64,000 nucleotides of DNA from an uncultured archaeon (GTDB taxonomy: Archaea; Asgardarchaeota; Lokiarchaeia; Sigyniarchaeales; SOKP01), in NCBI GenBank assembly GCA_964493715.1, contig CAZBPC010000002.1:79470-143469 (forward strand). The letters are read 5' to 3'. Shown piece after piece: positions 3,926 to 45,123 of the stretch. Numbering within the stretch: position 1 is the stretch's first letter; the number at the start of each line of letters is the position of its first letter. The notes under the pieces are model-generated. The model saw only the letters and a program-made list of their open reading frames with translations. It made no database searches and was not told the DNA's origin. The position numbers were made by a program, and so were the translations under genes.

Positions 3926-5140
3926 ATTATAACAGATAAAAGTGAATTTAATTGTTCAGATCCTAATCGATCCAAAAGACAAGAAATTAATCCCGGGTTA
4001 TGTTATTTTGAATATCCTTTAAATAAATCTAGAAAGGATTTTCTTGACAAAGATGTTAATTTTTTAGAGATAATAGAATCAAAACATTATAATAGATGTT
4101 TAACTGACAATATTCAGACTTATCTAAAAAGTCTTGAGGGTGAAATCAGAATTTTATTCGAACCTTTCATAGAATTTAAGAATATGGGTGCACTTTTTGG
4201 GCTTCATAATAATTACATGCCAAATAATAGGATGTATAAAAATTGTAAAAAAATTATAGCTAAAAGTACTTTAGATGAAATGCGAGTTAATTTCAAAAAA
4301 AATATTGAAAATTACACAAAGAAATTTCCACATTTGGTAGAGTTATTATTATTGTTTCATTCTGAAATTTTGAAATTTATTAATGAATATGAGATAATTC
4401 TTCAACCAAAACCTACTCCAGATTATCAAATGTTCAATCACCATCCTAATCTTAAAAGAGATTATTTTGAAATAATTGATACATATGAAAAAGCGTACTG
4501 GCTTGGATTTCTATTTGCTGATGGATGGATAGCAATAGAACATAAAAAATCTGGAGATTATTATCGAATGGGGCTCCAATTATCATATAAAGACAAGGAT
4601 GTGCTTCAGAGGTTTTGTAAAAGTATTGGATTAAATCCTAAATATATAAAAAATCGTCTTGTTGGAAGTGATTTTAGCACAAAATTATATCATATAGGTG
4701 AAATTAGATGGGGAGATCAAAAAATAGCTCAAGATCTTGTAAAATTAGGGATAATATATGGATACAGTGAACAAAAAGGAAGGCGCGTTAAAACCCCTAG
4801 ACTTCCAATACTACAGAACCGAAAACTGATGTTGGCATTTTTATCAGGTTTCTATGATGGTGATGGCACTCTTGGATTTGATAAGAAGACAGGCAAAATT
4901 CGTCCAAGAATTGCCTCTTCTGAAATAGACTTTTTACATCAAATAAAGCAATATTTCGGAATAAAGTATCAAATTTCTACAACAGAAATGGTTAAATTTA
5001 ATATAAGAACAGAGAAAATGGTTAATATAATAGGTAGTAGACTAGATGTTGATAAAGAAATATTTAAAGAAATGTTAAGTATATTTAAGAATAGTCTTGA
5101 AAGAAAGAGAGTTCCAATAGATTTCTTTAATGAAAAATAG
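3926..5140 (+). CDS. Free-standing two-motif LAGLIDADG endonuclease-like protein with N-terminal extension
   Basis: Motifs AYWLGFLFADGW and AFLSGFYDGDGT. The frame is open for 87 codons upstream of ATG 4184, back to TAG at 3920-3922, so the start may be ATT 3926 or ATA 3929 (uncertain). Confidence 0.8.
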   Translation: MITDKSEFNCSDPNRSKRQEINPGLCYFEYPLNKSRKDFLDKDVNFLEIIESKHYNRCLTDNIQTYLKSLEGEIRILFEPFIEFKNMGALFGLHNNYMPNNRMYKNCKKIIAKSTLDEMRVNFKKNIENYTKKFPHLVELLLLFHSEILKFINEYEIILQPKPTPDYQMFNHHPNLKRDYFEIIDTYEKAYWLGFLFADGWIAIEHKKSGDYYRMGLQLSYKDKDVLQRFCKSIGLNPKYIKNRLVGSDFSTKLYHIGEIRWGDQKIAQDLVKLGIIYGYSEQKGRRVKTPRLPILQNRKLMLAFLSGFYDGDGTLGFDKKTGKIRPRIASSEIDFLHQIKQYFGIKYQISTTEMVKFNIRTEKMVNIIGSRLDVDKEIFKEMLSIFKNSLERKRVPIDFFNEK

Positions 5141-5224: not shown

Positions 5225-6411
5225 ATGGCTAAAAATGTAAAGCGAATAGGAATTTTAACGGGTGGTGGAGTTTCATTTAAGATACATCTTTTTGAACCAC
5301 AGACTGTCCCGGATTAAATTCAGTGATTTATGGGATAATGCTGAAAGCTTACGATGCGGATGTAGAATGCGTAGGAATTCTAAAAGGATGGAAAGGTTTT
5401 GTTGAAAATTTAACGATTCCCTTAAACATTGCAGAACATGACGATCTTCATACCAAGGGAGGGACAATATTGTATACAAGTCGTACTAATCCATTTAAAG
5501 GAGTTGAGGCTAAAGAGGAAAAAGCAAAGCAATTAACTAATCAATTCAATGTGTTAGGTATAGATGCATTAATTGCTATCGGTGGAGATGATACTCTTGG
5601 AGTAGCAGATACCATGTATAAAATTGCTAATGCAAATGTAGTAGGGGTTCCAAAAACGATAGATAATGACTTGAAGGGTACTCATTACACTTTTGGGTTC
5701 TGGAGCGCTGTACAATTAGCTTCTAATGCGATGGATAATCTCACAACAACCGCACGTTCACACCAGCGTGTTTTTGTAGTTGAGATTATGGGAAGAGATG
5801 CTGGTTTTTTAACCATGTATAGTGGAATTTCAGCAGGAGCTGATATAATATTGGTTCCTGAAACCCCCTTTAGTTTAGAAAAAGATATTGTTGACGTACT
5901 CAAAAAAAGAGCTAATGCTGGGTATAAATATCACATCATTGCCACATCTGAAGGAGCTCATCCTCATATCGATTCATTAAATCGAGATTTCAAGACAATT
6001 TCAAAGGAAACAATTGATAAATTACCTAAAGATACATTTGGGAATCCTTTATTAGCAAAGTTAAACATTTCACAAATTATCGTTGATGAATTAAATTTAA
6101 GAGACGATCTAAAAGAAGTATTTCTCCAAAATGACGTCGAATTCGAATGCAGGAGCGTAGTTTTGGGACATACAATGCGAGCTGGAACACCTAATTCGTT
6201 CGATAGAATTTTGGGATTGAGATTTGGATTAGCAGCCATGAATATGGTTTTAGAGTCTAAATTTGGGAACATGGTTTCGCTTCAAGGTAATAAAATTAAA
6301 ACCATGCCGCTTTCGGAAGGGGTAAAAAAGAAATATATTACCTCAGATAGTGATAAAATGGAATTAAGAGATTTACTTGTAAAAGTGCGGTATCTATCGA
6401 AACAAAAATAG
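5225..6411 (+). CDS. pfp: 6-phosphofructokinase, probably PPi-dependent; split gene (exons 5225-5270 and 5303-6411, 384 aa when spliced)
   Basis: Spliced N-terminus MAKNVKRIGILTGGGDCPGLNSVI. GGTILYTSR, GGDDT, PKTIDNDL (Asp/Lys signature of PPi-type enzymes), MGRDAG and LGHTMRAG. Confidence 0.92.
5271..5302 (+). other. 32-nt BHB-type intron in pfk mRNA
   Basis: Central helix GTGG(5265-68)/CCAC(5297-5300), 3-nt bulges AGT and AGA, inner stems TTCA/TGAA and AAGA/TCTT. Removal restores GGA GAC TGT CCC. Confidence 0.85.
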
Positions 6412-6433: not shown

Positions 6434-6517
6434 TTATCCGAACTGCTTTTCTTCTTCCACATCGCTATCAAGAGTATTTTTCTCTAAATATCTGTCAAGC
6501 CCATTTTACGTTAGAAT
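6434..6517 (-). pseudogene. Relic of the 3' end of an acyl-CoA dehydrogenase allele
   Basis: Reads LDRYLEKNTLDSDVEEEKQFG*, compared with [21 protein letters not shown] at the end of ORF 7876..9120. Confidence 0.75.
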
Positions 6518-6620
6518 ACCACTTCCAGAAGGGGTAAAAAAGAAATATATTACCTCGGATAGTGATAAAATGGAATTAAAAGATTTGCTGGTAAAAGTTA
6601 GAGATTCATCTAAAAAATTA
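6516..6620 (+). repeat. Diverged duplicate of the pfk 3' end (copy of about 6304-6411)
   Basis: IPLPEGVKKKYITSDSDKMELKDLLVKVR versus MPLSEGVKKKYITSDSDKMELRDLLVKVR; long exact DNA match gaaggggtaaaaaagaaatatattacctc. Confidence 0.9.
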
Positions 6621-7838
6621 AAATATTAAATCCTTAGGCCTAACATCAGGAGCTTTAAGAAGAATTAACCCTGATATAACCGTTATACAAGCTGCTACTG
6701 CAAAAGGAGTCCATCCTATTATTTCTATTAGTGATCCTCCTCTCATTATTGTAATACTTGATAAATCTACAATATATCCCATAAATATCGGACCAAACAC
6801 AAAACCTATATCTCCAATCGTACGATACACGCCCATATAAATTTCAAGTTTATCCTGAGGCGCAATATCAGTCACATAAGCAGCTATTGGCCCTGAAAGC
6901 CCAATCAAAGCTCCATAAATAAACATAACAAAAGAAATGTAAATCAGATTTGAAGTAAAAGGAATCCAAAGGGTTACTGGTGCAGAAACGACAAGTGATA
7001 ATAAAAGAGGAGTTCGTCGCCCAATTTTGTCTGAAATCAAGCCAATAGGTAACATGGTAATTGTAGTTGCAATAGCCGCTATGGTTAATAATATACCAAT
7101 ATCAAATTCATTTAAACCAAGGTTATTACCCGAAAAAAGTGGTACAAGAGTGTTTCGCACTCCCGTCCGTATAAAGAATAACGAAAAAATTGAGGGAAGA
7201 ACTGGAATGAATGATGGATCTCTTAAACTGAACCTTACTTGATGATAGAGATCTTGAATCTTAATAGGTTCCTTTTCATTCGAATTATTCACTCTTGGCA
7301 ACGTAAGAGTGGGAACGATCCCTATAGCAGATATAATAGCATAAGCAAAAAATGGAGCGTTTATACCATATAAATCTGCAATAAAACCACCAAAACTTGG
7401 CCCAAAAATGGATCCCAATAATAAAAAACCAGAATAAATGCTCATTAAAAAACCTCGTCTTTCTGGGCTAGCAACTAATGCAATAAAAATGGTTGCAATT
7501 GTTACATAAATTGCAGAACCAAAACCTTCAATAAATCGAGCTAAAAGTAAAATCCAATAATATTGAGCTGATCCCGCCAAAATTGAGGATCCCGATATGA
7601 GTATTAATCCCAAAAGCATCAAATTCTTTTTATTATATCTTTGAGATAAGAAACCAGCTGGTAAATCAATGAACATGCGAGCAATTCCAAATGCAGACAC
7701 CACAAGTCCAATAAGCGTATAATTAACATTAAAAGATTCGGCATAAAAAGGTAAAATTGGAGCAATTATGCTTAATCCCAATAATACGAGAAAGGTGACA
7801 ACCGCAAGGTTTAATGTGATTATAAGGTCTCTTTTTAT
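6618..7838 (-). CDS. MFS transporter
   Basis: Many hydrophobic helices and motif GLISDKIGRR. Frame is open upstream of TTG 7781 through the first helix to ATA 7838, behind GGGGAG. Confidence 0.85.
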   Translation of the reverse strand: MKRDLIITLNLAVVTFLVLLGLSIIAPILPFYAESFNVNYTLIGLVVSAFGIARMFIDLPAGFLSQRYNKKNLMLLGLILISGSSILAGSAQYYWILLLARFIEGFGSAIYVTIATIFIALVASPERRGFLMSIYSGFLLLGSIFGPSFGGFIADLYGINAPFFAYAIISAIGIVPTLTLPRVNNSNEKEPIKIQDLYHQVRFSLRDPSFIPVLPSIFSLFFIRTGVRNTLVPLFSGNNLGLNEFDIGILLTIAAIATTITMLPIGLISDKIGRRTPLLLSLVVSAPVTLWIPFTSNLIYISFVMFIYGALIGLSGPIAAYVTDIAPQDKLEIYMGVYRTIGDIGFVFGPIFMGYIVDLSSITIMRGGSLIEIIGWTPFAVAACITVISGLILLKAPDVRPKDLIF

Positions 7839-35948: not shown

Positions 35949-36716
35949 ATGCCTCATCAAGAATTTTTTAATTTGGAAAGTTTAGTATTTATTGGACATA
36001 AGCAAAATCTATTTATTTCAAATATTAAAATCAAATATATGAGTTTAATTGATGAAGATCAAATGCGTTTAGTGATAGTGAACGCATCAAAAAAGATATA
36101 TAGCAGAGGATTAGTTCAAGCAGGAGAGGGTAATTTAAGCCTTAGAATCCCTGGTAAAAATGAAATGTTTATCACTCCTACTTACAATACTTATGAAGAC
36201 TTACAAAAAGCAAATTTAGTGCAAATCAATTTTGATGGCATCCTTGTAAATTCCACGAGACAACCCTCTTCAGAATACAGATTACATGTTGATTTATATA
36301 AAGCGCGTCCCAAGGTGATGGCAATCATCCACACTCACTCACCCTATGCTACAATGCTTTCTGTTGCTAGAATGAAAATTCCAGTTTTAATTGAAGAGCA
36401 AGTCATATTTCTTGGTGGTCATATCGATGTTTCCGAGTTTGCTTCTGCCCATACTGAAGAATTTAGTAATAATGCAATAAAAGGACTAGGAACAAGAAAT
36501 GCAACTTTGATGGCTAATCATGGAGTTCTAGCTTGTGGTAAATCAATGAGTGACGCTATTAAAATGGCAGAATTAGTAGAAAAATTAGCTTGGATTTATT
36601 ATGGTGCAAAATTAATGGGTGGTCCCGTAAGTATTTCTGATAAATCTTGCCCTATGTTTATTGAAGTGTTTGAAGAAAAATTTGCCACACATGAAAAGTT
36701 AATTAGTGATTGTTAG
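35949..36716 (+). CDS. Class II aldolase (FucA-like)
   Basis: EGNLS, PSSEYRLH, HTHSPY and ANHG. Real start probably at MSLID. Confidence 0.88.
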   Translation: MPHQEFFNLESLVFIGHKQNLFISNIKIKYMSLIDEDQMRLVIVNASKKIYSRGLVQAGEGNLSLRIPGKNEMFITPTYNTYEDLQKANLVQINFDGILVNSTRQPSSEYRLHVDLYKARPKVMAIIHTHSPYATMLSVARMKIPVLIEEQVIFLGGHIDVSEFASAHTEEFSNNAIKGLGTRNATLMANHGVLACGKSMSDAIKMAELVEKLAWIYYGAKLMGGPVSISDKSCPMFIEVFEEKFATHEKLISDC

Positions 36717-36757
36717 GTTTGAATTAGCTTTTTTAATCTTTTTTAATTTATTTATAT

Positions 36758-37432
36758 ATGGAACCAGAAAAAATTAGGGAATTGAGAAATGCTGTTGTAG
36801 ATGCCGCTAAATCGATTTTTTCTAAAGGTTTGGTTGAAAATAATGAAGGTAATGTTAGCATCCGTGTTGGGAAAAATGAAGAATATTTAATTACTCCAAC
36901 CGCAAATCAATATGATACACTCACCGAAGATCAGATTGTTCATATGGCTTTTGATGGAACTCCTTTAAGTTCTGGAAAATTGCCATCAAGTGAAACCAAA
37001 CTACATACAGCAATTTTTAAATCAAGACCAAAAGTTCAATGCGTTATTCATACCCATTCAACCTTTGCCACAATGCTATCAGTTGTAAGAAAAGGTATCC
37101 CAATAATAATGGAGGAACAAATAATTTATTTAGGGGGGTCCATTGATGTGTCAAATTATGGAGAAGCTCATACTGATGATATTGGAGAAGTTGCCCTTAA
37201 AGCTTTAGGTTATAAGAATGGTGCGATATTAGCAAATCATGGAGTTATAGTATGTGGGAAATCGGCTTCTAATGCAATAAAAAACGCAGAATTAGTTGAA
37301 AAATTCGCAAAGATCTATTGGGGAAGCCTTCTTATTGGAGAGCCTCAACTCTTGATTGATGAGGATTTAGAAAGATTTCATAAAATGTTTCAACAATTAT
37401 TTGCTAATTGCCCAAGAAAATTATTAAAATAA
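36758..37432 (+). CDS. Class II aldolase (FucA-like), tandem paralog
   Basis: EGNVS, PSSETKLH, HTHS and ANHG. Confidence 0.9.
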   Translation: MEPEKIRELRNAVVDAAKSIFSKGLVENNEGNVSIRVGKNEEYLITPTANQYDTLTEDQIVHMAFDGTPLSSGKLPSSETKLHTAIFKSRPKVQCVIHTHSTFATMLSVVRKGIPIIMEEQIIYLGGSIDVSNYGEAHTDDIGEVALKALGYKNGAILANHGVIVCGKSASNAIKNAELVEKFAKIYWGSLLIGEPQLLIDEDLERFHKMFQQLFANCPRKLLK

Positions 37433-37448
37433 ACCTAAAGAAGAAATC

Positions 37449-38275
37449 ATGTTATTAGGGATTAGTACTTTAGCACATTTAATAGACAATGTCTCCAAAA
37501 AAACTGGTAGTCTTTTTGATAATTTTTTTAAAGCAACAGAAGGTTGTTTTAATTTTGCTGAAGAAAATGATATTCTTGTTGTAGAAATTGTTATAGAACC
37601 TCAGACTATCATTAGAGGTGAAAATAAACATAAATTCATTGATTTAGTTAACTCATACTCGCTTCAAAAACAAGTGCATGGACCTTATATCGATATCAAT
37701 TTATGTTCTCATAATAATACTATTTCTATGGCATCAGTTGAATCATATTTAGAAACGTATAATATCTGTAAAGAAATTAATATTAATCTGATGACCGTTC
37801 ATCCGGGACAAGCCAACCCCATGATGACTTCAATAGGATAATATAATAAAATACAGCTTGCAGAAGGTGTATCGAAAATATTAGACACAATTAATAATTC
37901 AGAGTTTACGATTTGCCTTGAGAATATGCCAAAAAGCACATTTATTATGCTTGATCAGAATGATATTGAAGTTGTTCTAAAGAAAATTAATCGATCTGAT
38001 TTAAAATTGACCTATGATACTAGTTATTTCTATACTAATGATGGTAATATTAAGTTTTATGGGATAAATATCATAAAATTATTAAACATGTCCACCTTGT
38101 TGAAAACTTTTCAAAATTTTCAGATACTCATCCAACCTTAGGGACTGGAAAAATTAATTTCCAAGAAATTTTCAATCAACTCAAAAAATTTCAATATGGG
38201 GGATCTTTAATTATTGAATTAGCATCATCGATTAATCTACAAACGAGTATTCAATATATTTATCAATTTTTAAAG
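37449..38275 (+). pseudogene. Xylose-isomerase-like TIM barrel (sugar phosphate isomerase/epimerase), disrupted
   Basis: VHGPYIDINL, TVHPG, CLENMP, TYDT, HVHL, and DTHPTLGTGKINF. In-frame TAA at 37839-41 and a frameshift near 38055. End coordinate approximate. Confidence 0.75.
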
Positions 38276-38350
38276 TTAGTTAGAAGGGAACATTATTTTC
38301 TTTATTTTCGTTTAAAATTTATAATAAAATCTACCTTAATAATTGTAATT

Positions 38351-38743
38351 ATGAAAATAATTTCTTTGCAAATTAGCGATGATTTATTAGTTAGATTTGA
38401 AAAAGTTAGATTCAGAAGTGGATTTAATTCAAAAAGTGAAGCCTTGAGGGATGCAATTGTAAAATTCATTGAGAATTATGAGAAATTTGAAAATCTGAAT
38501 GGATATAAGATAATGACAATAAATTTGGTTTATCCATTTAAAAATATCATATCAGATGAGATTTCAGAATTATATAACCAATTCAACGCGATTATAAAAG
38601 CAATTACTGATTGGAGAATTGTAGAAAAAAAAATAGAAGTTGTATTAACAGTGGGAGAATTTGGACTTATTAAGGATTTGTATCAATCTCTGGCCAAAAT
38701 AAAAGATGTATCTTGCTCAATTCATGAGATTGTTATCGATTAA
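38351..38743 (+). CDS. CopG/NikR-like ribbon-helix-helix regulator
   Basis: IISLQISDDLL...SKSEALRDAI plus an ACT-like C domain. Confidence 0.8.
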   Translation: MKIISLQISDDLLVRFEKVRFRSGFNSKSEALRDAIVKFIENYEKFENLNGYKIMTINLVYPFKNIISDEISELYNQFNAIIKAITDWRIVEKKIEVVLTVGEFGLIKDLYQSLAKIKDVSCSIHEIVID

Positions 38744-38752
38744 ATTGTTCAA

Positions 38753-39622
38753 TTAGTCAAATCGAAGTGAAATATCGACTTTTTCAGGAGGAAATTGGGT
38801 TAATTCACTGGAGCTTATAATATCTGGTTCAGCAATCACATAATCGACGAAATTTTCTAATGTAATACCTCCTGAAACTTCAATTATTACCATTCCACGA
38901 ACTTTATTCCTTTTCAATGTACTAATTGCATTCCCTACTTGATCAGGGGTCATATTATCGAGCATGATGATGTCTGCCCCTAATTTAGCTGCAATTAAAA
39001 CATCTTCAACCCTTTCAATTTCAATTTCAATTTTTTTTGTGAAACTAGCACTCTTTTTTATTTCTCTCATCATTTCCTCTATGTTTCCATTGTAATATTT
39101 TAAATGTGTATCTTTCAATAATATCATATCATCGAGTGAAAAACGATGTGTTTCCCCTCCACCGAGAAAAACTGCTTTCTTCTCAAAAATACGCAATCCT
39201 GGAAGCGTTTTACGTGTACATGCTATCTTTACAGCTTTTCCAGAATTTTTAATAATTTCTACATACTTACGAGTAGTAGTAGTTATGGCACTCATATGAG
39301 AGAGCAAATTTAGAGCTGTTCGTTCTCCAAATAGTATTGATTGTGTTTCTCCTTTTAGATGGGCAAGGATATCTCCTTTCTTCACTCGATCTCCATCTTC
39401 TTTAACAAGGTTCACGGATACATTTAAAATGTCATATATTAAATTCAATTCTTCTAATCCACTAATATAACCACTGCTTTTTGCTATAACTTTTGCAGAA
39501 CTAATTGCAATTTCGGGAATTATACTTGAACTCACGTCACTGAAATGACAATCTTCTTCAAGAAATTCTCTAATTTTTCTCTCTAAAATTAAGTTATTAA
39601 ACTTCACTTTGATGATCACCAA
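38753..39622 (-). CDS. nadC: Quinolinate phosphoribosyltransferase
   Basis: ERTALN, TRKTLPGLR, HRFSL, LKDTH, MLDNM and SGGI. Confidence 0.95.
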   Translation of the reverse strand: MVIIKVKFNNLILERKIREFLEEDCHFSDVSSSIIPEIAISSAKVIAKSSGYISGLEELNLIYDILNVSVNLVKEDGDRVKKGDILAHLKGETQSILFGERTALNLLSHMSAITTTTRKYVEIIKNSGKAVKIACTRKTLPGLRIFEKKAVFLGGGETHRFSLDDMILLKDTHLKYYNGNIEEMMREIKKSASFTKKIEIEIERVEDVLIAAKLGADIIMLDNMTPDQVGNAISTLKRNKVRGMVIIEVSGGITLENFVDYVIAEPDIISSSELTQFPPEKVDISLRFD

Positions 39623-39662
39623 CTGTAGTATAATTATTATAGAATCAAATCTAATTAAAATT

Positions 39663-40319
39663 ATGCTAATGATTCAAGGTAATGAAGTATCTTTAGAAGC
39701 GGAGATTTTTCAGTCAGGAAATGAATTTAACAATACTGTAGTCTTAATATGCCATCCTCATCCTCAATTTCTGTAGGGTTTCCTAAGAAAGGGAAAATAT
39801 GGAGGATCGATGCATAATAATGTTATATCTTATATTTTCAATCATTTAGTTAAAAATGATATCTCGTGTTTACGTTTCAATTTCAGAGGTGTAGAAAGAT
39901 CAACTGGAAAACATTCAGGAGGAAGTGGAGAGTTATCTGATGTTCATAGTTGTATTACATTTCTCCAAAAAAGAGAGATACAAAGGATAATAATATGTGG
40001 GTATTCTTATGGTGCCGCTATCGGATGCTCAGCTGTAAATTTTTCAGAATCAATCATAGGATTCTGCGCGATTTCTTTTCCGTGGGATTTTATGGGAAAA
40101 AATTACAAAAATCTCTCACAAACTGAAAAACCTAAACTATTTATTCAAGGGGATCAAGATTCTATTGCTAGTTTTGATAATTTCTTGTCTCATTATAATT
40201 TCTATAAGGAACCCAAAGAAAAAATTATTATCAAGGGAGCTGATCACTTCTATTGGGGATTAGAAGGAATTTTAGCAGATAAAGTGGTTAAATTTGTAAA
40301 AAAGTTCAATCCATCTTAA
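39663..40319 (+). CDS. Alpha/beta hydrolase; split gene (exons 39663-39766 and 39797-40319, 208 aa when spliced)
   Basis: Spliced sequence LICHPHPQYGGSMHNNV, then LRFNFRGV, nucleophile GYSYG, QGDQD and GADHF. Confidence 0.88.
39767..39796 (+). other. 30-nt BHB-type intron in hydrolase mRNA
   Basis: Central helix TCCT(39761-64)/GGGA(39791-94), bulges CAA and AAA, inner stems TTTCT/AGAAA and TAGG/CCTA. Contains an in-frame TAG. Confidence 0.85.
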
Positions 40320-40349
40320 CCAACAACATTTAATCATATGAAATCTGAC

Positions 40350-40748
40350 TTAAATAGTTGATAATTTCTCTAAATCTTGAAAACTGTTTTGTACAGCCCA
40401 ATCAAGCAGTTGTTCATAATATCTCTCAATATCATCCGATTCTGGTGGCTTAGAGAGAACAGCTAATAAAAATTGAGTTTTATCGTCTTTCATAATAATA
40501 TTTCTGCAAATAATAAAATCATTAACATACTTGATCTTCAAACTTGCTAATAGAGATAAACTTAATTCTTCAGATGCTTTATATGCGGCATCACTCAGTA
40601 AGGATCCCATAGCCGCTATTACTCTTTCATCAACCTCATCTACTTTTTGTGAAGCTAAAACAAGTCCTGTAGAAGTAGAAAAAAGAGACGCTCGAAAATT
40701 ACCATTATCATTGAGTTCTTTCAGAATCATCTCAAGTTTGCCAACCAT
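40350..40748 (-). CDS. Roadblock/LC7 domain protein
   Basis: SLFSTSTGLVLAS and IAAMGSLLSDAA. Confidence 0.78.
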   Translation of the reverse strand: MVGKLEMILKELNDNGNFRASLFSTSTGLVLASQKVDEVDERVIAAMGSLLSDAAYKASEELSLSLLASLKIKYVNDFIICRNIIMKDDKTQFLLAVLSKPPESDDIERYYEQLLDWAVQNSFQDLEKLSTI

Positions 40749-40878
40749 TTTAAATTTCCACTTTCGTTAAATTGATTTATAAATATGTAAATTATAAGCT
40801 CTTTACTATATTTAACATTAACTGATTTCTAATTTTATACGATTACAATCATATTTTGATTCTAAAAAAAAAATAGCA

Positions 40879-41403
40879 TTAACCTAATTTTAGATTTATG
40901 ATATAAGTAGATAAAATGTTATTTTCATCAATAGACATGGTTATCACGCTCGGTCTCGCAACGGGTTTATCAAATCCTCGTTTTTGAGCTGGAGCCTTAG
41001 GATTTGTAGGGCTACCTGGATTTATAAGTAATGTGTTAAATCTGGTCCCTTTGATTAATTGTTGATGAGAGTGACCTATGATCAATATATGAATTTCATT
41101 ACTTTTAAAGAAATTCTCCAAATCTTTGGGTTCTTCGTGAATAACACCGATGTTATATTTTCCCGCGGGAAACTTAATGAATCTTTCAAGATCTTTTATG
41201 TTATCGTCATGACCTTTAACAGATATAGTTGGAGCAATCATATTTAAATCCTTTAGAAAATTCTTGCTACAAATATCTCCTGCATGAATAATTTGATCAA
41301 CATCTTTGAAAACTCTTTTTAACTCATATAACAATTCATTAGTCTTAGTTACATCATCATTTTCAGTAATGTGTGTATCTGAAATTATTCCATATTTAAC
41401 CAT
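40879..41403 (-). CDS. YfcE/Vps29-like metallophosphoesterase
   Basis: ISDTH, HAGD, GHSH and INPGS. Confidence 0.88.
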   Translation of the reverse strand: MVKYGIISDTHITENDDVTKTNELLYELKRVFKDVDQIIHAGDICSKNFLKDLNMIAPTISVKGHDDNIKDLERFIKFPAGKYNIGVIHEEPKDLENFFKSNEIHILIIGHSHQQLIKGTRFNTLLINPGSPTNPKAPAQKRGFDKPVARPSVITMSIDENNILSTYIINLKLG

Positions 41404-41415
41404 GCTATCGCACCA

Positions 41416-42471
41416 TTAATAAAAAACTACTCCTATAATAAAAATAAGAAATCCAAACAAAAAGTCGAGCATTATTCGTATTATTTTAGATTTAGTATTT
41501 TCTCTAATTTGAGCATCATTTTTGAAATATAGTTTTATATCTTTTGTACCTATTGAAAAGCTTTCTTTAATGAGAGGAAATTCTAATAATAATAAAACAA
41601 TACCAATAACCATTAATGGAAGATAAAGAAACAATGCTAGAATCATAAAGTCATTTCCTTGAAGATAATTCCAAATTGCATGTGCAGATATAATATTATT
41701 AATACCGTGTGCGAATATAGCGGGAAAAATCCATCGCCGCCTTAAAACAGTCATCGAAAGGATCATTCCTATAAAAAATGCTTCAATCATCCATATAAAA
41801 GGAAAAAATATTGGAGCTCTTGGACTTGCAGGGCTAAATAAATAAGCAAAATGACCCATACCAAAATAAAAGGAAGAAATTACGACTGCCGACATTTTAG
41901 AAACATAATCACTTCCCCTATTTGCTAAAAATCCCCTAGTTAGAGATTCCTCATAAAAAGCGACTGAAAATTGTATGATTATTACTGAACCTAAAAATAT
42001 GAGATATGGCTCAAAAAAATAGGAATTTGTGACGTTAAAGGTTAAGACCAAAGCAGAATATTCAAGCATTTGTGGCGCAAAAAAATAAGTTAAGAAATCA
42101 ATTGGAATAAAAACTAAAAATAAAATCAAAATCCCATATAATAATTGAAACTTAAAATTCGATCTTTTTATAACAAATAAACCGAGAAAATTTCGAGATG
42201 GGCTCGTATCTCTCTCTAATATAAGTTCTCCTCGCTTCCCATATAAGGCAAAATTAGAAACATACAGGAATAAAGTAATAGCTACAATCACTATCATAGC
42301 TCTTACTAGAAAATATGAGATGCCATAAATTGCTCCATAATTTTGAAGAAATGATAATGGAAGTAATATAATTGAGGTAATGAGGATGCCCAGAAAAATG
42401 AGGACAGTCTCAAGTAAAAAATAGAATCTTTGTATAACCATTTTTTTCGTTGAACTTCGTTTTCTTGTCAT
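41416..42471 (-). CDS. CPBP (CAAX/Abi) intramembrane metalloprotease
   Basis: EESLTRG, FGMGH and AHGINN. Confidence 0.85.
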   Translation of the reverse strand: MTRKRSSTKKMVIQRFYFLLETVLIFLGILITSIILLPLSFLQNYGAIYGISYFLVRAMIVIVAITLFLYVSNFALYGKRGELILERDTSPSRNFLGLFVIKRSNFKFQLLYGILILFLVFIPIDFLTYFFAPQMLEYSALVLTFNVTNSYFFEPYLIFLGSVIIIQFSVAFYEESLTRGFLANRGSDYVSKMSAVVISSFYFGMGHFAYLFSPASPRAPIFFPFIWMIEAFFIGMILSMTVLRRRWIFPAIFAHGINNIISAHAIWNYLQGNDFMILALFLYLPLMVIGIVLLLLEFPLIKESFSIGTKDIKLYFKNDAQIRENTKSKIIRIMLDFLFGFLIFIIGVVFY

Positions 42472-42580
42472 AGAGGAATTACCTTAATAGATTAATTTAG
42501 AAATTATAATATAATTAATAGTATAAATATTATCGTTTCATTGTTAAGTTTATCATCAGTATTTAATCATCTAGTTGTAG

Positions 42581-43768
42581 TTAATTATATTCAAAAGAAC
42601 CAAATTCTGATTTAATTTCAACGACATTTTTTTTAGCACTTGGGGATTCTTCACAGAAACCAATAATTTTTGATTCAATTGCAAACTTTCTACAGATCTC
42701 CATAATTTTTTTTGCATTGGACTCACTACAGTAGATTTCTAAACGATTCCCCATATTAAAAACTTGATACATATCTCTCCACGGCGTTTCAGAGGAGTTC
42801 TGAATAATTTCGAAAATTTTGGGTGCTTTAAATAGGTTATTCTTTATATATTTTATCCCCTTACCAAAATTTAGAACCTTAGTTTGCCCTCCTCCTGTAT
42901 TTTGAATAATGCCATGAATTTCTTTTCTAAAATTATGTAAAATTTCAATTAATACTGGAGCATAAGTTCTAGTTGGAGATAGAAGAGATTTACCTATATC
43001 TAATTCTAATCCTGGAAGCTTATCTGTTAATAAATGTATACCAAAAAAGAGTAATTCCTCATTAGTCTCTCTATCAAAACACTCGGGATATGTTTCGTGG
43101 TATTTATGAGCCAGTACACCATGGCGAGCAAGTGTTAACCCATTACTCCCTATACCACTGTTATATTCATCCTCATATACTGCCTTTCCATCACTAGCTA
43201 ATCCTAATATTACGTCACCGGGTTGAATATTTGATGCATCTATCACATCTTTTCGCTCCATTGTTGTAAACATTGACGCGTCAACTAATAAAGTCTTTAC
43301 AATATCCCCCACATCAGCAGTTTCGCCTCCACACATAATCACTTTTAAGCCGAGTTCCGTCAATTTACTACTATAGGACTGATATTCATTAATAATTTCA
43401 TTAACAATTTGTCCTGAAATGTAATGACTATTTCTCCCGATATTGTTTGATAAGAAATAATCCCCCGTTGCTCCTACGCATAGCATATCATCAATATTCA
43501 TGACCATCGCGTCTCTAACAATACCTCTAAATACAGAGATGTCATTTGTTTCTCTATAATACATGTATGCTAAACTGCTTTTGGTTCCTGCCCCATCGGA
43601 ATGAAATATTGAACAATATTTAGTTCTCATTCTTACATCTTCCACGATCTTACAAAAAGCTCCAGGAAATAATCCTTTATTGATATTTTCTATTGCATTG
43701 TGAACAACTTCTTTTTTAGATGAAACACCTAATTGGGAGTAAATATTTTTCTCATCTGGCATTTTCAT
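42581..43768 (-). CDS. purM: AIR synthase (phosphoribosylformylglycinamidine cyclo-ligase)
   Basis: DGAGTKS, MNIDD, GGETAD, GSNG and VFNMG; directly downstream of purB. Confidence 0.88.
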   Translation of the reverse strand: MKMPDEKNIYSQLGVSSKKEVVHNAIENINKGLFPGAFCKIVEDVRMRTKYCSIFHSDGAGTKSSLAYMYYRETNDISVFRGIVRDAMVMNIDDMLCVGATGDYFLSNNIGRNSHYISGQIVNEIINEYQSYSSKLTELGLKVIMCGGETADVGDIVKTLLVDASMFTTMERKDVIDASNIQPGDVILGLASDGKAVYEDEYNSGIGSNGLTLARHGVLAHKYHETYPECFDRETNEELLFFGIHLLTDKLPGLELDIGKSLLSPTRTYAPVLIEILHNFRKEIHGIIQNTGGGQTKVLNFGKGIKYIKNNLFKAPKIFEIIQNSSETPWRDMYQVFNMGNRLEIYCSESNAKKIMEICRKFAIESKIIGFCEESPSAKKNVVEIKSEFGSFEYN

Positions 43769-45123
43769 ATTGTATATTTATTTCTCAATATTTCTATTAA
43801 ATGATCAATTTGAGCTTCTGCTAACCCAGTATATTGATGAGGATCCAATAAATCTTTCAATTCTTTTTCAGAGAATTTTTGCTTTATTTTAGAATTATTA
43901 CTTAAAATTTCTTCTATGAACTTATTTTCATTTATAGCATGCATTACAGCTTGTCTTAGTATTTCGTGTCCTTCTTGTCTTCCAATTCCTCGATTAACAA
44001 GTTCTAACATAATTTTTTCACTTAAACAAGCCCCTTTAGTAAGATTTAAATTTTTTTCTACGTTAATTTCGTTAAATTCAACTCCTTGAAGAATTGAAAT
44101 CATCTGTTGAATAATATAGTCTAAAAGTATGAAATTTTCAGCAAAAATTATTCGTTCATTGGCTGAATTCGTAAGATCCCTTTCATCCTCTAAAATAATG
44201 TTATCTAAAGCAGGAATAACGTTAGATTTTAACACTCTCGCCAAACTACAAATTCTTTCCGATTTATGAGGATTTCTTTTGTGAGGCATTGTTGAACTAC
44301 CTACTTGACTTTTCTTGAACGGTTCAAACATTTCAGCAATTTCATTTCTTTGAAGGATACGAAATTCTCTGGCTATTTTTGCTATAGATTGACCAATTAA
44401 TGATGTTAATATAATTACTTCAGCATGACGGTCTCTTTGTATTATTTGATTTGCGATTAGAACAGCATTTAAATCAAGAAGTTGCATTAATTTTGTTTGT
44501 AATTTAATGCCTTTTTCTCCAAAGCTTGCCATTGTTCCCACTGCTCCAGACATTTTTCCAAAAGATATTCTTTCTAAAATTTGCTCTAATCGATCAAGAT
44601 GCCTACTTATTTCATAAGCCCAAACTCCAAATCGCATCCCATAAGTGGTAGGAATAGCATGTTGTCCATGAGTTCTTCCAATACATACCAAATTTTTTTT
44701 TTCTTCAGCTATCTTTACAATTACCATTAATAATTTGGTTAATGATTTCTTAATGTAGGTTAAAGCCTCTCGAAGTTGTAAAGCTGTAGCTGTATCCTCA
44801 ATATCATAGCTAGTTGCCCCTAAATGGATGTATTTACCTGCATTTCCTTCACATTGCTCTGTTAAAGCTTTAACCATCGCCATTAAATCATGATGAATTT
44901 CATCATCAATTTCTTTGACTCTTTCAAGTTTAACGTATTTCAAGTTAGCCTTTTTATTAATCTCTTCTGCTATTTTTAAAGGAATGATATTCAATTGGGC
45001 ATTAACGGTCGCTAAAACAGCTTCAATTTTTAGCCAATTTTTTAATTTAGTCTCCTCCGTAAAAATTGAAGCAATATCGGTTCGGTATCGATTTTCAATT
45101 GGATTTACAAATTGATGATTCAT
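43765..45123 (-). CDS. purB: Adenylosuccinate lyase
   Basis: HLGATSYD, GRTHGQHA and GSSTMPHKRNP. Confidence 0.95.
   Translation of the reverse strand: MNHQFVNPIENRYRTDIASIFTEETKLKNWLKIEAVLATVNAQLNIIPLKIAEEINKKANLKYVKLERVKEIDDEIHHDLMAMVKALTEQCEGNAGKYIHLGATSYDIEDTATALQLREALTYIKKSLTKLLMVIVKIAEEKKNLVCIGRTHGQHAIPTTYGMRFGVWAYEISRHLDRLEQILERISFGKMSGAVGTMASFGEKGIKLQTKLMQLLDLNAVLIANQIIQRDRHAEVIILTSLIGQSIAKIAREFRILQRNEIAEMFEPFKKSQVGSSTMPHKRNPHKSERICSLARVLKSNVIPALDNIILEDERDLTNSANERIIFAENFILLDYIIQQMISILQGVEFNEINVEKNLNLTKGACLSEKIMLELVNRGIGRQEGHEILRQAVMHAINENKFIEEILSNNSKIKQKFSEKELKDLLDPHQYTGLAEAQIDHLIEILRNKYTI

Follow-up and report, generated by a model that had tools for sequence, protein, structure and literature searches.

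Bulge-helix-bulge (BHB) introns of archaeal pre-mRNAs have been described in cbf5, a gene that is interrupted in Crenarchaeota (Aeropyrum, Sulfolobus and Desulfurococcales) according to the accessible text of Yokobori (2009, PMC2738675). A literature search, whose coverage did not extend to subscription journals, retrieved only cbf5 as an archaeal pre-mRNA with such an intron and no protein gene of Asgard archaea. Further references on the cbf5 intron are reportedly those of Watanabe in 2002 and Yoshinari in 2006. The nearest work, a preprint on tRNA introns of Asgard archaea, does not use the term 'mRNA' in its accessible part (10.64898/2026.10.13.758758). Here we analysed a stretch of 64,000 nucleotides (nt) from an uncultured Asgard archaeon (assembly GCA_964493715.1, contig CAZBPC010000002.1, positions 79,470 to 143,469 of the forward strand), referred to below as the window. 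The segment 39767-39796 of this window is, with high probability, an archaeal BHB intron located within the coding sequence of an alpha/beta hydrolase.

As far as the accessible text on cbf5 allows a comparison, the hydrolase intron would share with that intron its short length, its location in a protein gene, a BHB-like fold made of exon and intron together, and cuts between the second and third residues of the bulges. A host with a hetero-oligomeric EndA (the tRNA-splicing endonuclease) and a lineage-specific loss are also common to both. In contrast, the cbf5 intron interrupts a pseudouridine synthase gene of Crenarchaeota and the present one a hydrolase gene of an Asgard archaeon, in whose genome at least four further protein genes appear to be interrupted. 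Moreover, spliced cDNAs of cbf5 have been sequenced, whereas the hydrolase intron is known here from genes. The tRNA introns of archaea that show the hBHBh' motif, reportedly described by Marck and Grosjean in 2003, are similar in the two 3-nt bulges, the helix of 4 base pairs (bp) and the presumed enzymes, and the hydrolase intron falls within the size range of this genome's own tRNA introns (11-39 nt). They differ in that the host is here an mRNA whose codons supply the exon half of the motif, which is thus constrained by the protein, and in that a stop codon or a frameshift is always present. Outside the archaea, HAC1 and XBP1 also carry a short mRNA intron which is excised by a protein endonuclease, joined by a tRNA ligase and alters translation. 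The XBP1 intron has 26 nt, the endonuclease is Ire1, which acts on twin stem-loops, the ligase is RtcB in animals, and the system is a regulated stress switch. The differences are Ire1 with its twin stem-loops and regulation in that system, and a predicted BHB in the hydrolase intron. The comparative data given below make it well supported that the hydrolase intron would be a further case of a known but very rare kind, found in a lineage where it bears on the origin of interrupted genes.

The frame that starts at ATG 39663 reads ...LICHPHPQFL, a stop and then GFLRKGKYGGSMHNN (in fuller form, MLMIQGNEVSLEAEIFQSGNEFNNTVVLICHPHPQFL, the same stop and GFLRKGKYGGSMHNN...), and it ends at the terminal stop 40317-40319 on the plus strand. 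The first stop is an in-frame TAG at 39774-39776, inside the insert, and the frame resumes 30 nt further on. Excision of the 30 nt 39767-39796 joins CA to A TAT GGA and gives HPHPQYGGSM, restoring the HPHPxxGGxM motif which is otherwise split. Because runs of A are found at the borders, three adjacent pairs of cuts (shifted by 1 nt either way) yield the identical product. Without the insert the gene would encode an alpha/beta hydrolase of 208 amino acids (aa), while the unspliced RNA would give 37 residues until TAG. The elements of the locus, all on the plus strand, are the following:

39663-39766, plus strand: 5' exon, 34 codons followed by the CA that begins the Gln codon, reading MLMIQGNEVSLEAEIFQSGNEFNNTVVLICHPHP(Q)
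39753-39760, plus strand: 5' strand of the outer helix (h), made of the His-Pro-His codons of the exon; pair A39760-T39798, two mismatches and three pairs
39761-39764, plus strand: TCCT, the 5' half of the central helix (H), which covers the last base of the second His codon and the whole second Pro codon
39765-39767, plus strand: 5' bulge CAA, with predicted cut CA^A
39767-39796, plus strand: predicted BHB intron of 30 nt, missing from 12 of 33 loci of the genus and from outside homologues
39768-39790, plus strand: inner helix (h') and loop, TTTCT-G-TAGG gttt CCTA-AGAAA, present in every predicted fold
39774-39776, plus strand: in-frame TAG stop of the insert, which ends unspliced translation at 37 residues
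39791-39794, plus strand: 3' strand of the central helix, GGGA, within the intron and invariant in 21 of 21 sequences
39795-39797, plus strand: 3' bulge AAA, with predicted cut AA^A
39797-40319, plus strand: 3' exon, which completes the Gln codon with one base, continues as YGGSMHNN... until the stop and contains GYSYG, GDQD and ADHF
39798-39807, plus strand: 3' strand of the outer helix, made of the Tyr-Gly-Gly codons of the exon

This arrangement follows the BHB layout, which on each strand consists of a helix, a central strand of 4 nt, a 3-nt bulge and a helix, according to the accessible parts of a 2018 paper and of the preprint cited above (10.64898/2026.10.13.758758). The central pairs formed by TCCT and GGGA are U-A, C-G, C-G and U-G. 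In the cbf5 intron each bulge is cut between its second and third residues, as stated in the accessible text of PMC2738675, and the same rule applied to the hydrolase insert gives CA^A and AA^A. An alternative outer pairing is offered by ATCCTC (39754-39759) with GAGGAT (39802-39807). An earlier note on this DNA had named the central helix, the bulges, the inner hairpin and the ATCCTC/GAGGAT pairing, and all of them were found in the sequence where it had placed them. Its description of a stop-containing insert of 30 nt in the HPHPQYGG motif of an alpha/beta hydrolase was likewise borne out by the frame, the translation, Pfam and the structure alignments; so was the junction of CA with A TAT restoring HPHPQYGGSM, since insert-free orthologues and solved homologues read in the same way.

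The identity of the hydrolase was established from both exons. The 3' exon matched Pfam family PF20408 (Abhydrolase_11) with 36.9 bits (range 36.9 to 38.4; curated cut-off 27) and chain 3trd_A of the PDB with E = 1.3e-21. When both halves were read through, with X at the stop, they aligned to 3trd_A (E = 4e-24) and to 2i3d_A, the insert corresponding in both cases to a gap of precisely 10 residues, and the 5' exon aligned to residues 10-42 of 3trd_A. The stretches GYSYG, GDQD and ADHF stand opposite GFSFG, GDQD and ASHF of 3trd_A, and the nucleophile elbow GxSxG is thus present in both (GYSYG and GFSFG, respectively). The predicted product of 208 aa resembles the COG2945-like alpha/beta hydrolases (3trd_A, 2i3d_A and 2fuk_A) in the HPHPxxGGxM motif and in its length, which matches that of 3trd_A; it differs in that the solved relatives and the homologues read outside the genus have uninterrupted genes. 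An Rfam search of window positions 39500-40000 gave zero matches at E up to 1, and the 64-kb window contained no tRNA genes.

The distribution of the insert was studied with the downstream 169 residues as a query against 60 related genomes. Leaving aside the genome of the window itself, 32 of 35 genomes in the same genus had orthologues, and 33 loci from 32 genus genomes were read (L001-L030 and three more), one fragment in G014 being left out. The insert was found at the same site in 21 of these 33 loci. It is 33 nt long in 15 of them, 30 nt in three and 31 nt in three. Each of the 18 inserts whose length (30 or 33 nt) keeps the frame contains a stop in that frame, which may be TAA, TGA or TAG and whose place varies. 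With the three inserts of 31 nt, the sequences on either side no longer share a reading frame, yet the frame of the 5' exon is intact up to CHPHPQ. In fact, each of the 21 insert-bearing loci keeps an intact 5' frame of 35-40 codons from Met to CHPHPQ (CHPHPE in one). The stops of the in-frame inserts and the frame shifts of the 31-nt ones therefore exclude a reading through the insert, and the loop of 10 aa free of stops which close homologues could have carried at this place was found in none of them.

The 12 other loci are insert-free and show HPHP(Q/S/L/E)(F/Y)GG without interruption. Outside this set, the insert was also missing from 13 of 15 named records and from G050, which belongs to another genus of the same order; the two carriers are close relatives. 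Homologue alignment, which the earlier note had proposed as a check, thus gave the result expected of an intron. Twelve of the 13 insert-free named records have HPHPx(Y/F/H/M)GGxM unbroken, L040 having a shorter motif. They include other Promethearchaeota, one Hermodarchaeota and one Jordarchaeum record, and seven bacterial records, the bacteria being Desulfobacterales-like. The short open frame of G050 is due to the end of its contig, and no break occurs in its motif.

A BHB model of 18 pairs was then counted on an alignment of the 21 insert-bearing loci. In this model 93.6% of the cells pair, compared with 36-75% when the 3' partners were slid by 1-3 columns. Changes on both sides were observed in six of the 18 pairs (21 cells), and none of 500 shuffles reached the observed covariation score or percentage paired, although the shared ancestry of these relatives makes the shuffle control overstate the significance. 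In the inner helix 93% of the cells are paired and four of the eight pairs in the count show changes in both partners; columns 22/41, for example, hold C-G, U-A and U-G. In the outer helix, with 90% paired, two pairs covary, which involve third codon positions of the Pro/His codons on one side and of the Tyr/Gly codons on the other. The four pairs of the central helix UCCU/GGGA are present in 20 of 20 distinct sequences without any variation. The 3' bulge is always AA(A/G) and keeps its length; where it is AAG, the junction codon becomes CAG, which still encodes Gln. In addition, the second His-Pro is encoded by CAT CCT in the 21 insert-bearing genes, and the Pro codon is CCC, CCG or CCA in six of the 12 insert-free ones. 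With the BHB core (both bulges and the 4-bp central helix) enforced, none of the 21 sequences lay more than about 1.3 kcal/mol above its free minimum; the means were -18.2 kcal/mol for the enforced and -18.9 for the free folds, and the two were identical in seven sequences.

Both exons are, from the comparison of their sequences, judged to be under purifying selection as strong as that acting on insert-free genes. The ratio of nonsynonymous to synonymous differences (pN/pS), summed over pairs, was 0.51 for the 5' exon in the 21 insert-bearing genes and 0.48 in nine insert-free ones, and for the 3' exon 0.32 and 0.36, respectively; these ratios are rough, as pS values of 0.5-0.66 are near saturation. 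In the closest pair, L001/L002, the 5' exon had a pS of 0.23 and a pN of 0.08. The Tyr-Gly-Gly codons before the Met of GGxM show only synonymous changes, save Tyr to Phe in L025 and L028. A maximum-likelihood tree was built from the 3' exon proteins of 30 loci and three outgroup rows. In this tree L030, which has no insert, branches as the sister of the 30-nt pair L025/L028, and L029, likewise insert-free, as that of the 33-nt pair L015/L017, both with support of at least 95/80. The QFGG of L030 equals the predicted spliced reading of L025/L028, and the QYGG of L029 that of L015/L017. The nesting of insert-free genes in insert-bearing clades implies precise losses. The simplest account would be a single gain, early in the history of the genus, and several precise losses after it; how many events took place is uncertain because the deep branches are weak, with 13 of 30 forks open.

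Several points weigh against an intron at this site. The proposal comes from genomic DNA, and a search for RNA sequencing runs covering window positions 36000-44000 found none. The fold energy of the 54-nt stretch is ordinary (z = -1.14, with 24 of 200 shuffles as good), and the unconstrained minimum-energy fold pairs the central strand in another register, via the repeat CATCCT CATCCT; in the window genome the enforced BHB core has -16.0 kcal/mol and the free fold -17.0, being 1.0 costlier. The outer helix of this genome is also weak in the canonical register, having one A-U pair, two mismatches and three pairs, and the invariant central helix gives zero covariation support. The ancestry shared by the aligned sequences and the near-saturation of pS, mentioned above, belong to the same side of the balance. 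Furthermore, we performed a genome-wide census of BHB folds whose splicing joins two open coding-like frames, comparing canonical with shifted decoy offsets. A first filter without coding score gave 6,636 canonical cases and 6,484-6,877 for the decoys, and no excess was obtained with three later settings (18 vs 8-20 with frame-changing decoys, 38 vs 31-37, and 444 vs 430-465). The census missed the hydrolase intron itself, since the coding score of its 5' exon (1.17) is below the threshold of 3.

The scan used for this census also indicates how often such folds arise by chance. Requiring a central helix of 4 bp with at least two GC pairs and at least four inner pairs, at 55 lengths of 16-70 nt, it found 18,467 BHB-like folds in both strands of the 3.68 Mb, or about 5e-5 per site and length. 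As BHB-like folds are common by chance and the energy is ordinary, the fold alone is no evidence. The weight lies in the exact match between the predicted cut sites and the ends of an insert absent from homologues, and in the comparative data. The chance that the cut sites hit the insert borders defined by homology is about 1e-4, given the three equivalent pairs of cuts.

Other explanations for the insert were considered. A split or truncated gene, of which only the 169-aa open reading frame 39810-40319 beginning at the Met of GGSMHNN is made, with the upstream 37 codons and the insert being a leader or remnant, would fit the ATG found directly 3' of the insert; 17 of the 120 public protein matches listed have 168-171 aa, and calls of this size (P0003, P0011 and P0070) start at MHNN or MYNN. 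We regard this as unlikely. The Met belongs to the family motif and is present in insert-free genes too, the 5' exon keeps its frame in the 21 loci with the pN/pS of insert-free genes, the Tyr-Gly-Gly codons upstream of the Met vary in the almost wholly synonymous way described above, and a protein of 169 aa would be without the first strands and the HPHP stretch which align to the solved structures. A decaying pseudogene, put out of use by a disabling insertion, would account for a stop that breaks a conserved motif, but this is highly improbable for an insert kept at one site in 21 species with a synonymous divergence of about 0.5-0.6. None of the 21 loci has further stops or frameshifts in the exons, purifying selection is on a par with that on insert-free genes, and the GYSYG, GDQD and ADHF stretches are intact.

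The stop near a potential take-off region and the hairpin might also suggest translational recoding, either as a ribosome bypass of 30-33 nt of the T4 gene 60 type or as stop readthrough or reassignment (e.g. pyrrolysine) giving a loop of 10 aa. The gap of T4 gene 60 has a stop close after the take-off region, a hairpin, and matching take-off and landing codons. In the hydrolase gene, however, CAA stands before the gap and AAA TAT after it, with no matching landing codon, and the gap may have 30, 31 or 33 nt; a bypass would also leave unexplained why bulges are conserved exactly 4 bp apart. Readthrough cannot accommodate the 31-nt inserts, which are unreadable in frame, a single reassignment does not fit the use of TAA, TGA and TAG across species, and no tRNA with the anticodon CTA was among the matches listed by ARAGORN. 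Recoding is consequently very unlikely. BHB-like folds are frequent by chance in an AT-rich genome, so that a chance hairpin, or an artefact of assembly or sequencing, had to be contemplated; the presence of the insert in 21 loci from 21 separate genomes, and in the public calls P0004 and P0082, which pass through the insert in a shifted frame, leaves this with hardly any probability. Group I or II introns, inteins, spliceosomal introns and target-duplicating insertions were rejected as well: the insert has 30 nt with a stop, no GT..AG borders and a flanking repeat of at most 1-2 A.

The genome that carries the putative BHB intron contains genes for the enzymes its removal would need. The assembly has 3.68 Mb in 160 contigs and 31% G+C, and records of its close relatives in the named collection bear the label Promethearchaeota archaeon, which denotes Asgard archaea. 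The EndA catalytic domain PF01974 gave two matches (102 and 68 bits) in open reading frames of 207 and 205 aa located on different contigs, the two paralogues being found in the regions C5:38084-38308 and C58:18731-18976. The closest solved chains are 3p1z_B, 3ajv_B and 2cv8_A for the first EndA and 1a79_A for the second, and the two paralogues probably form a two-subunit enzyme. They agree with the two-subunit EndA that a 2018 paper assigned to Asgard archaea, and in the accessible parts of that paper and of the preprint (10.64898/2026.10.13.758758) such an enzyme is linked to a relaxed substrate range. RtcB is also encoded in the genome (PF01139, 484 bits). Among the matches listed by ARAGORN there are a tRNA-Sec and numerous tRNA genes with introns; these introns measure 11-39 nt, which brackets the size of the hydrolase insert, and lie at canonical and non-canonical positions. 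About 30 tRNAs were among these matches; several host tRNAs were probably missed by the program or are more heavily interrupted.

With these components the pre-mRNA would fold so that the His-Pro-His-Pro-Gln codons, the intron hairpin and the Tyr-Gly-Gly codons form a helix, a 3-nt bulge, a 4-bp helix, a second 3-nt bulge and a helix. EndA would then cleave at CA^A and AA^A, between the second and third bulge residues, and RtcB would ligate the exons. The spliced mRNA would encode the 208-aa hydrolase with the whole HPHPQYGGSM motif, while unspliced RNA could produce only the 37-residue peptide because of the in-frame TAG. We infer the cleavage and ligation in the cell, as well as any regulatory role, from these features.

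Four more protein genes with predicted introns were identified in the same genome (G000); a case was retained only if its junction gave back a conserved motif that could be recognised. The names of the nadE-like and EF-2-family genes are our assumption from sequence motifs. The inserts are:

rtcB, contig C2, 12136-12164, minus strand: 29 nt, frame-shifting, between GGVGY and DINCGV; central helix TTGG/CCAA, cuts AT^A and AG^A; in 2 of 29 loci (G000 and G001)
pfk, window 5271-5302, plus strand: 32 nt, frame-shifting, between GILTGGG and DCPGLN; central helix GTGG/CCAC, cuts AG^T and AG^A
nadE-like gene, contig C39, 8748-8777, plus strand: 30 nt, stop-bearing, between TKYGD and GGVD; central helix GGTG/CACT, cuts AT^A and AA^G; in 2 of 29 loci
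EF-2-family gene, one of two paralogues, contig C76, 5211-5240, minus strand: 30 nt, stop-bearing, between MTDSD and EEEQARGITI; central helix TCAG/CTGA, cuts AT^T and AA^G; in 3 of 29 loci

The rtcB insert was found before any fold was considered, from a PF01139 match split into profile positions 1-47 and 48-426, which lie about 29 nt apart on the same strand; the 27 other rtcB loci have GGVGYDINCGV uninterrupted. The carriers of the EF-2-family insert (G000, G015 and G023) are not closest relatives in the hydrolase tree, and the other 26 loci read DSD(E/D)EEQ. In rtcB, the nadE-like gene and the EF-2-family gene, all the insert-free orthologues that were read show the exact predicted junction. 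In the nadE-like insert of G016 (L159), the canonical cut would give DSGVD and not DGGVD. The 10-mer GAATTACTTA is common to the EF-2 and nadE introns of G000, and these two introns may be of common origin, as this shared sequence suggests. It appears that the same mechanism serves a metabolic enzyme and several other genes in Asgard archaea.

Most of the hits of the census described above were ordinary neighbouring genes, for example pairs which from their motifs we take to be LeuC/LeuD-like and PorA/PorB-like. One hit, at window 5314-5336, was false, being located inside the true exon 2 of pfk. The number of such introns per genome is probably small, only a handful in this one, or else the scan is insensitive.

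We lean slightly towards the view that the genus carries a small, turning-over population of introns of about 30 nt and EndA/RtcB type in protein genes, including rtcB and an EF-2-family gene. On this view the divergence of species in a single genus would have been time enough for such introns to arise, to be lost precisely and perhaps to be copied from one gene to another, and they would make output dependent on tRNA splicing. If this is true, every intron blocks translation until it is removed, and the protein output depends on the tRNA-splicing machinery. The intron of rtcB would constitute a self-dependent loop and, together with that of the EF-2 paralogue, would make RNA ligation and translation depend on how much splicing the cell can perform. 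Unconventional mRNA splicing would also have a counterpart in prokaryotes, namely in those most closely related to eukaryotes. The 21 insert-bearing and 12 insert-free hydrolase loci of one genus, with the other sites occupied in 2-3 of 29 loci, are a natural data set on intron gain and precise loss.

The public calls for insert-bearing orthologues either begin at the GGxM Met and have 168-171 aa or, as in P0004 and P0082, read across the insert in a shifted frame, and no spliced product of an insert-bearing lineage was found among the listed closest public-protein matches to exon 2. The interrupted genes are thus held publicly as truncated or frame-shifted calls, and the intron has therefore gone unnoticed in annotation. 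Such truncated calls bias gene content and pseudogene counts in these genomes.

Finally, regarding pfk, the earlier note had referred to an intron of the same geometry as that of the hydrolase, and the insert at 5271-5302 with its central helix GTGG/CCAC corresponds to it. This insert was seen in this genome alone, relatives being judged from an open-frame column only. Nine relatives contain a different stop-bearing pfk insert of 30-36 nt at GGD/DT. Seven of these were read (G016, G009, G013, G005, G029, G021 and G018; L131, L133 and L141-L145), each with 30 nt and two or three stops. They show a hairpin and a 7x7 layout which is BHB-like, with an irregular central helix, and fall into two sequence types whose borders are 2 nt apart. 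The pfk genes of G032 and G027 have stops inside the match. Just upstream of the window's pfk, an open reading frame of 318 aa (4184-5140, plus strand) contains the LAGFLDGDG-like stretches WLGFLFADGW and FLSGFYDGDG, which resemble the motifs of LAGLIDADG homing endonucleases.

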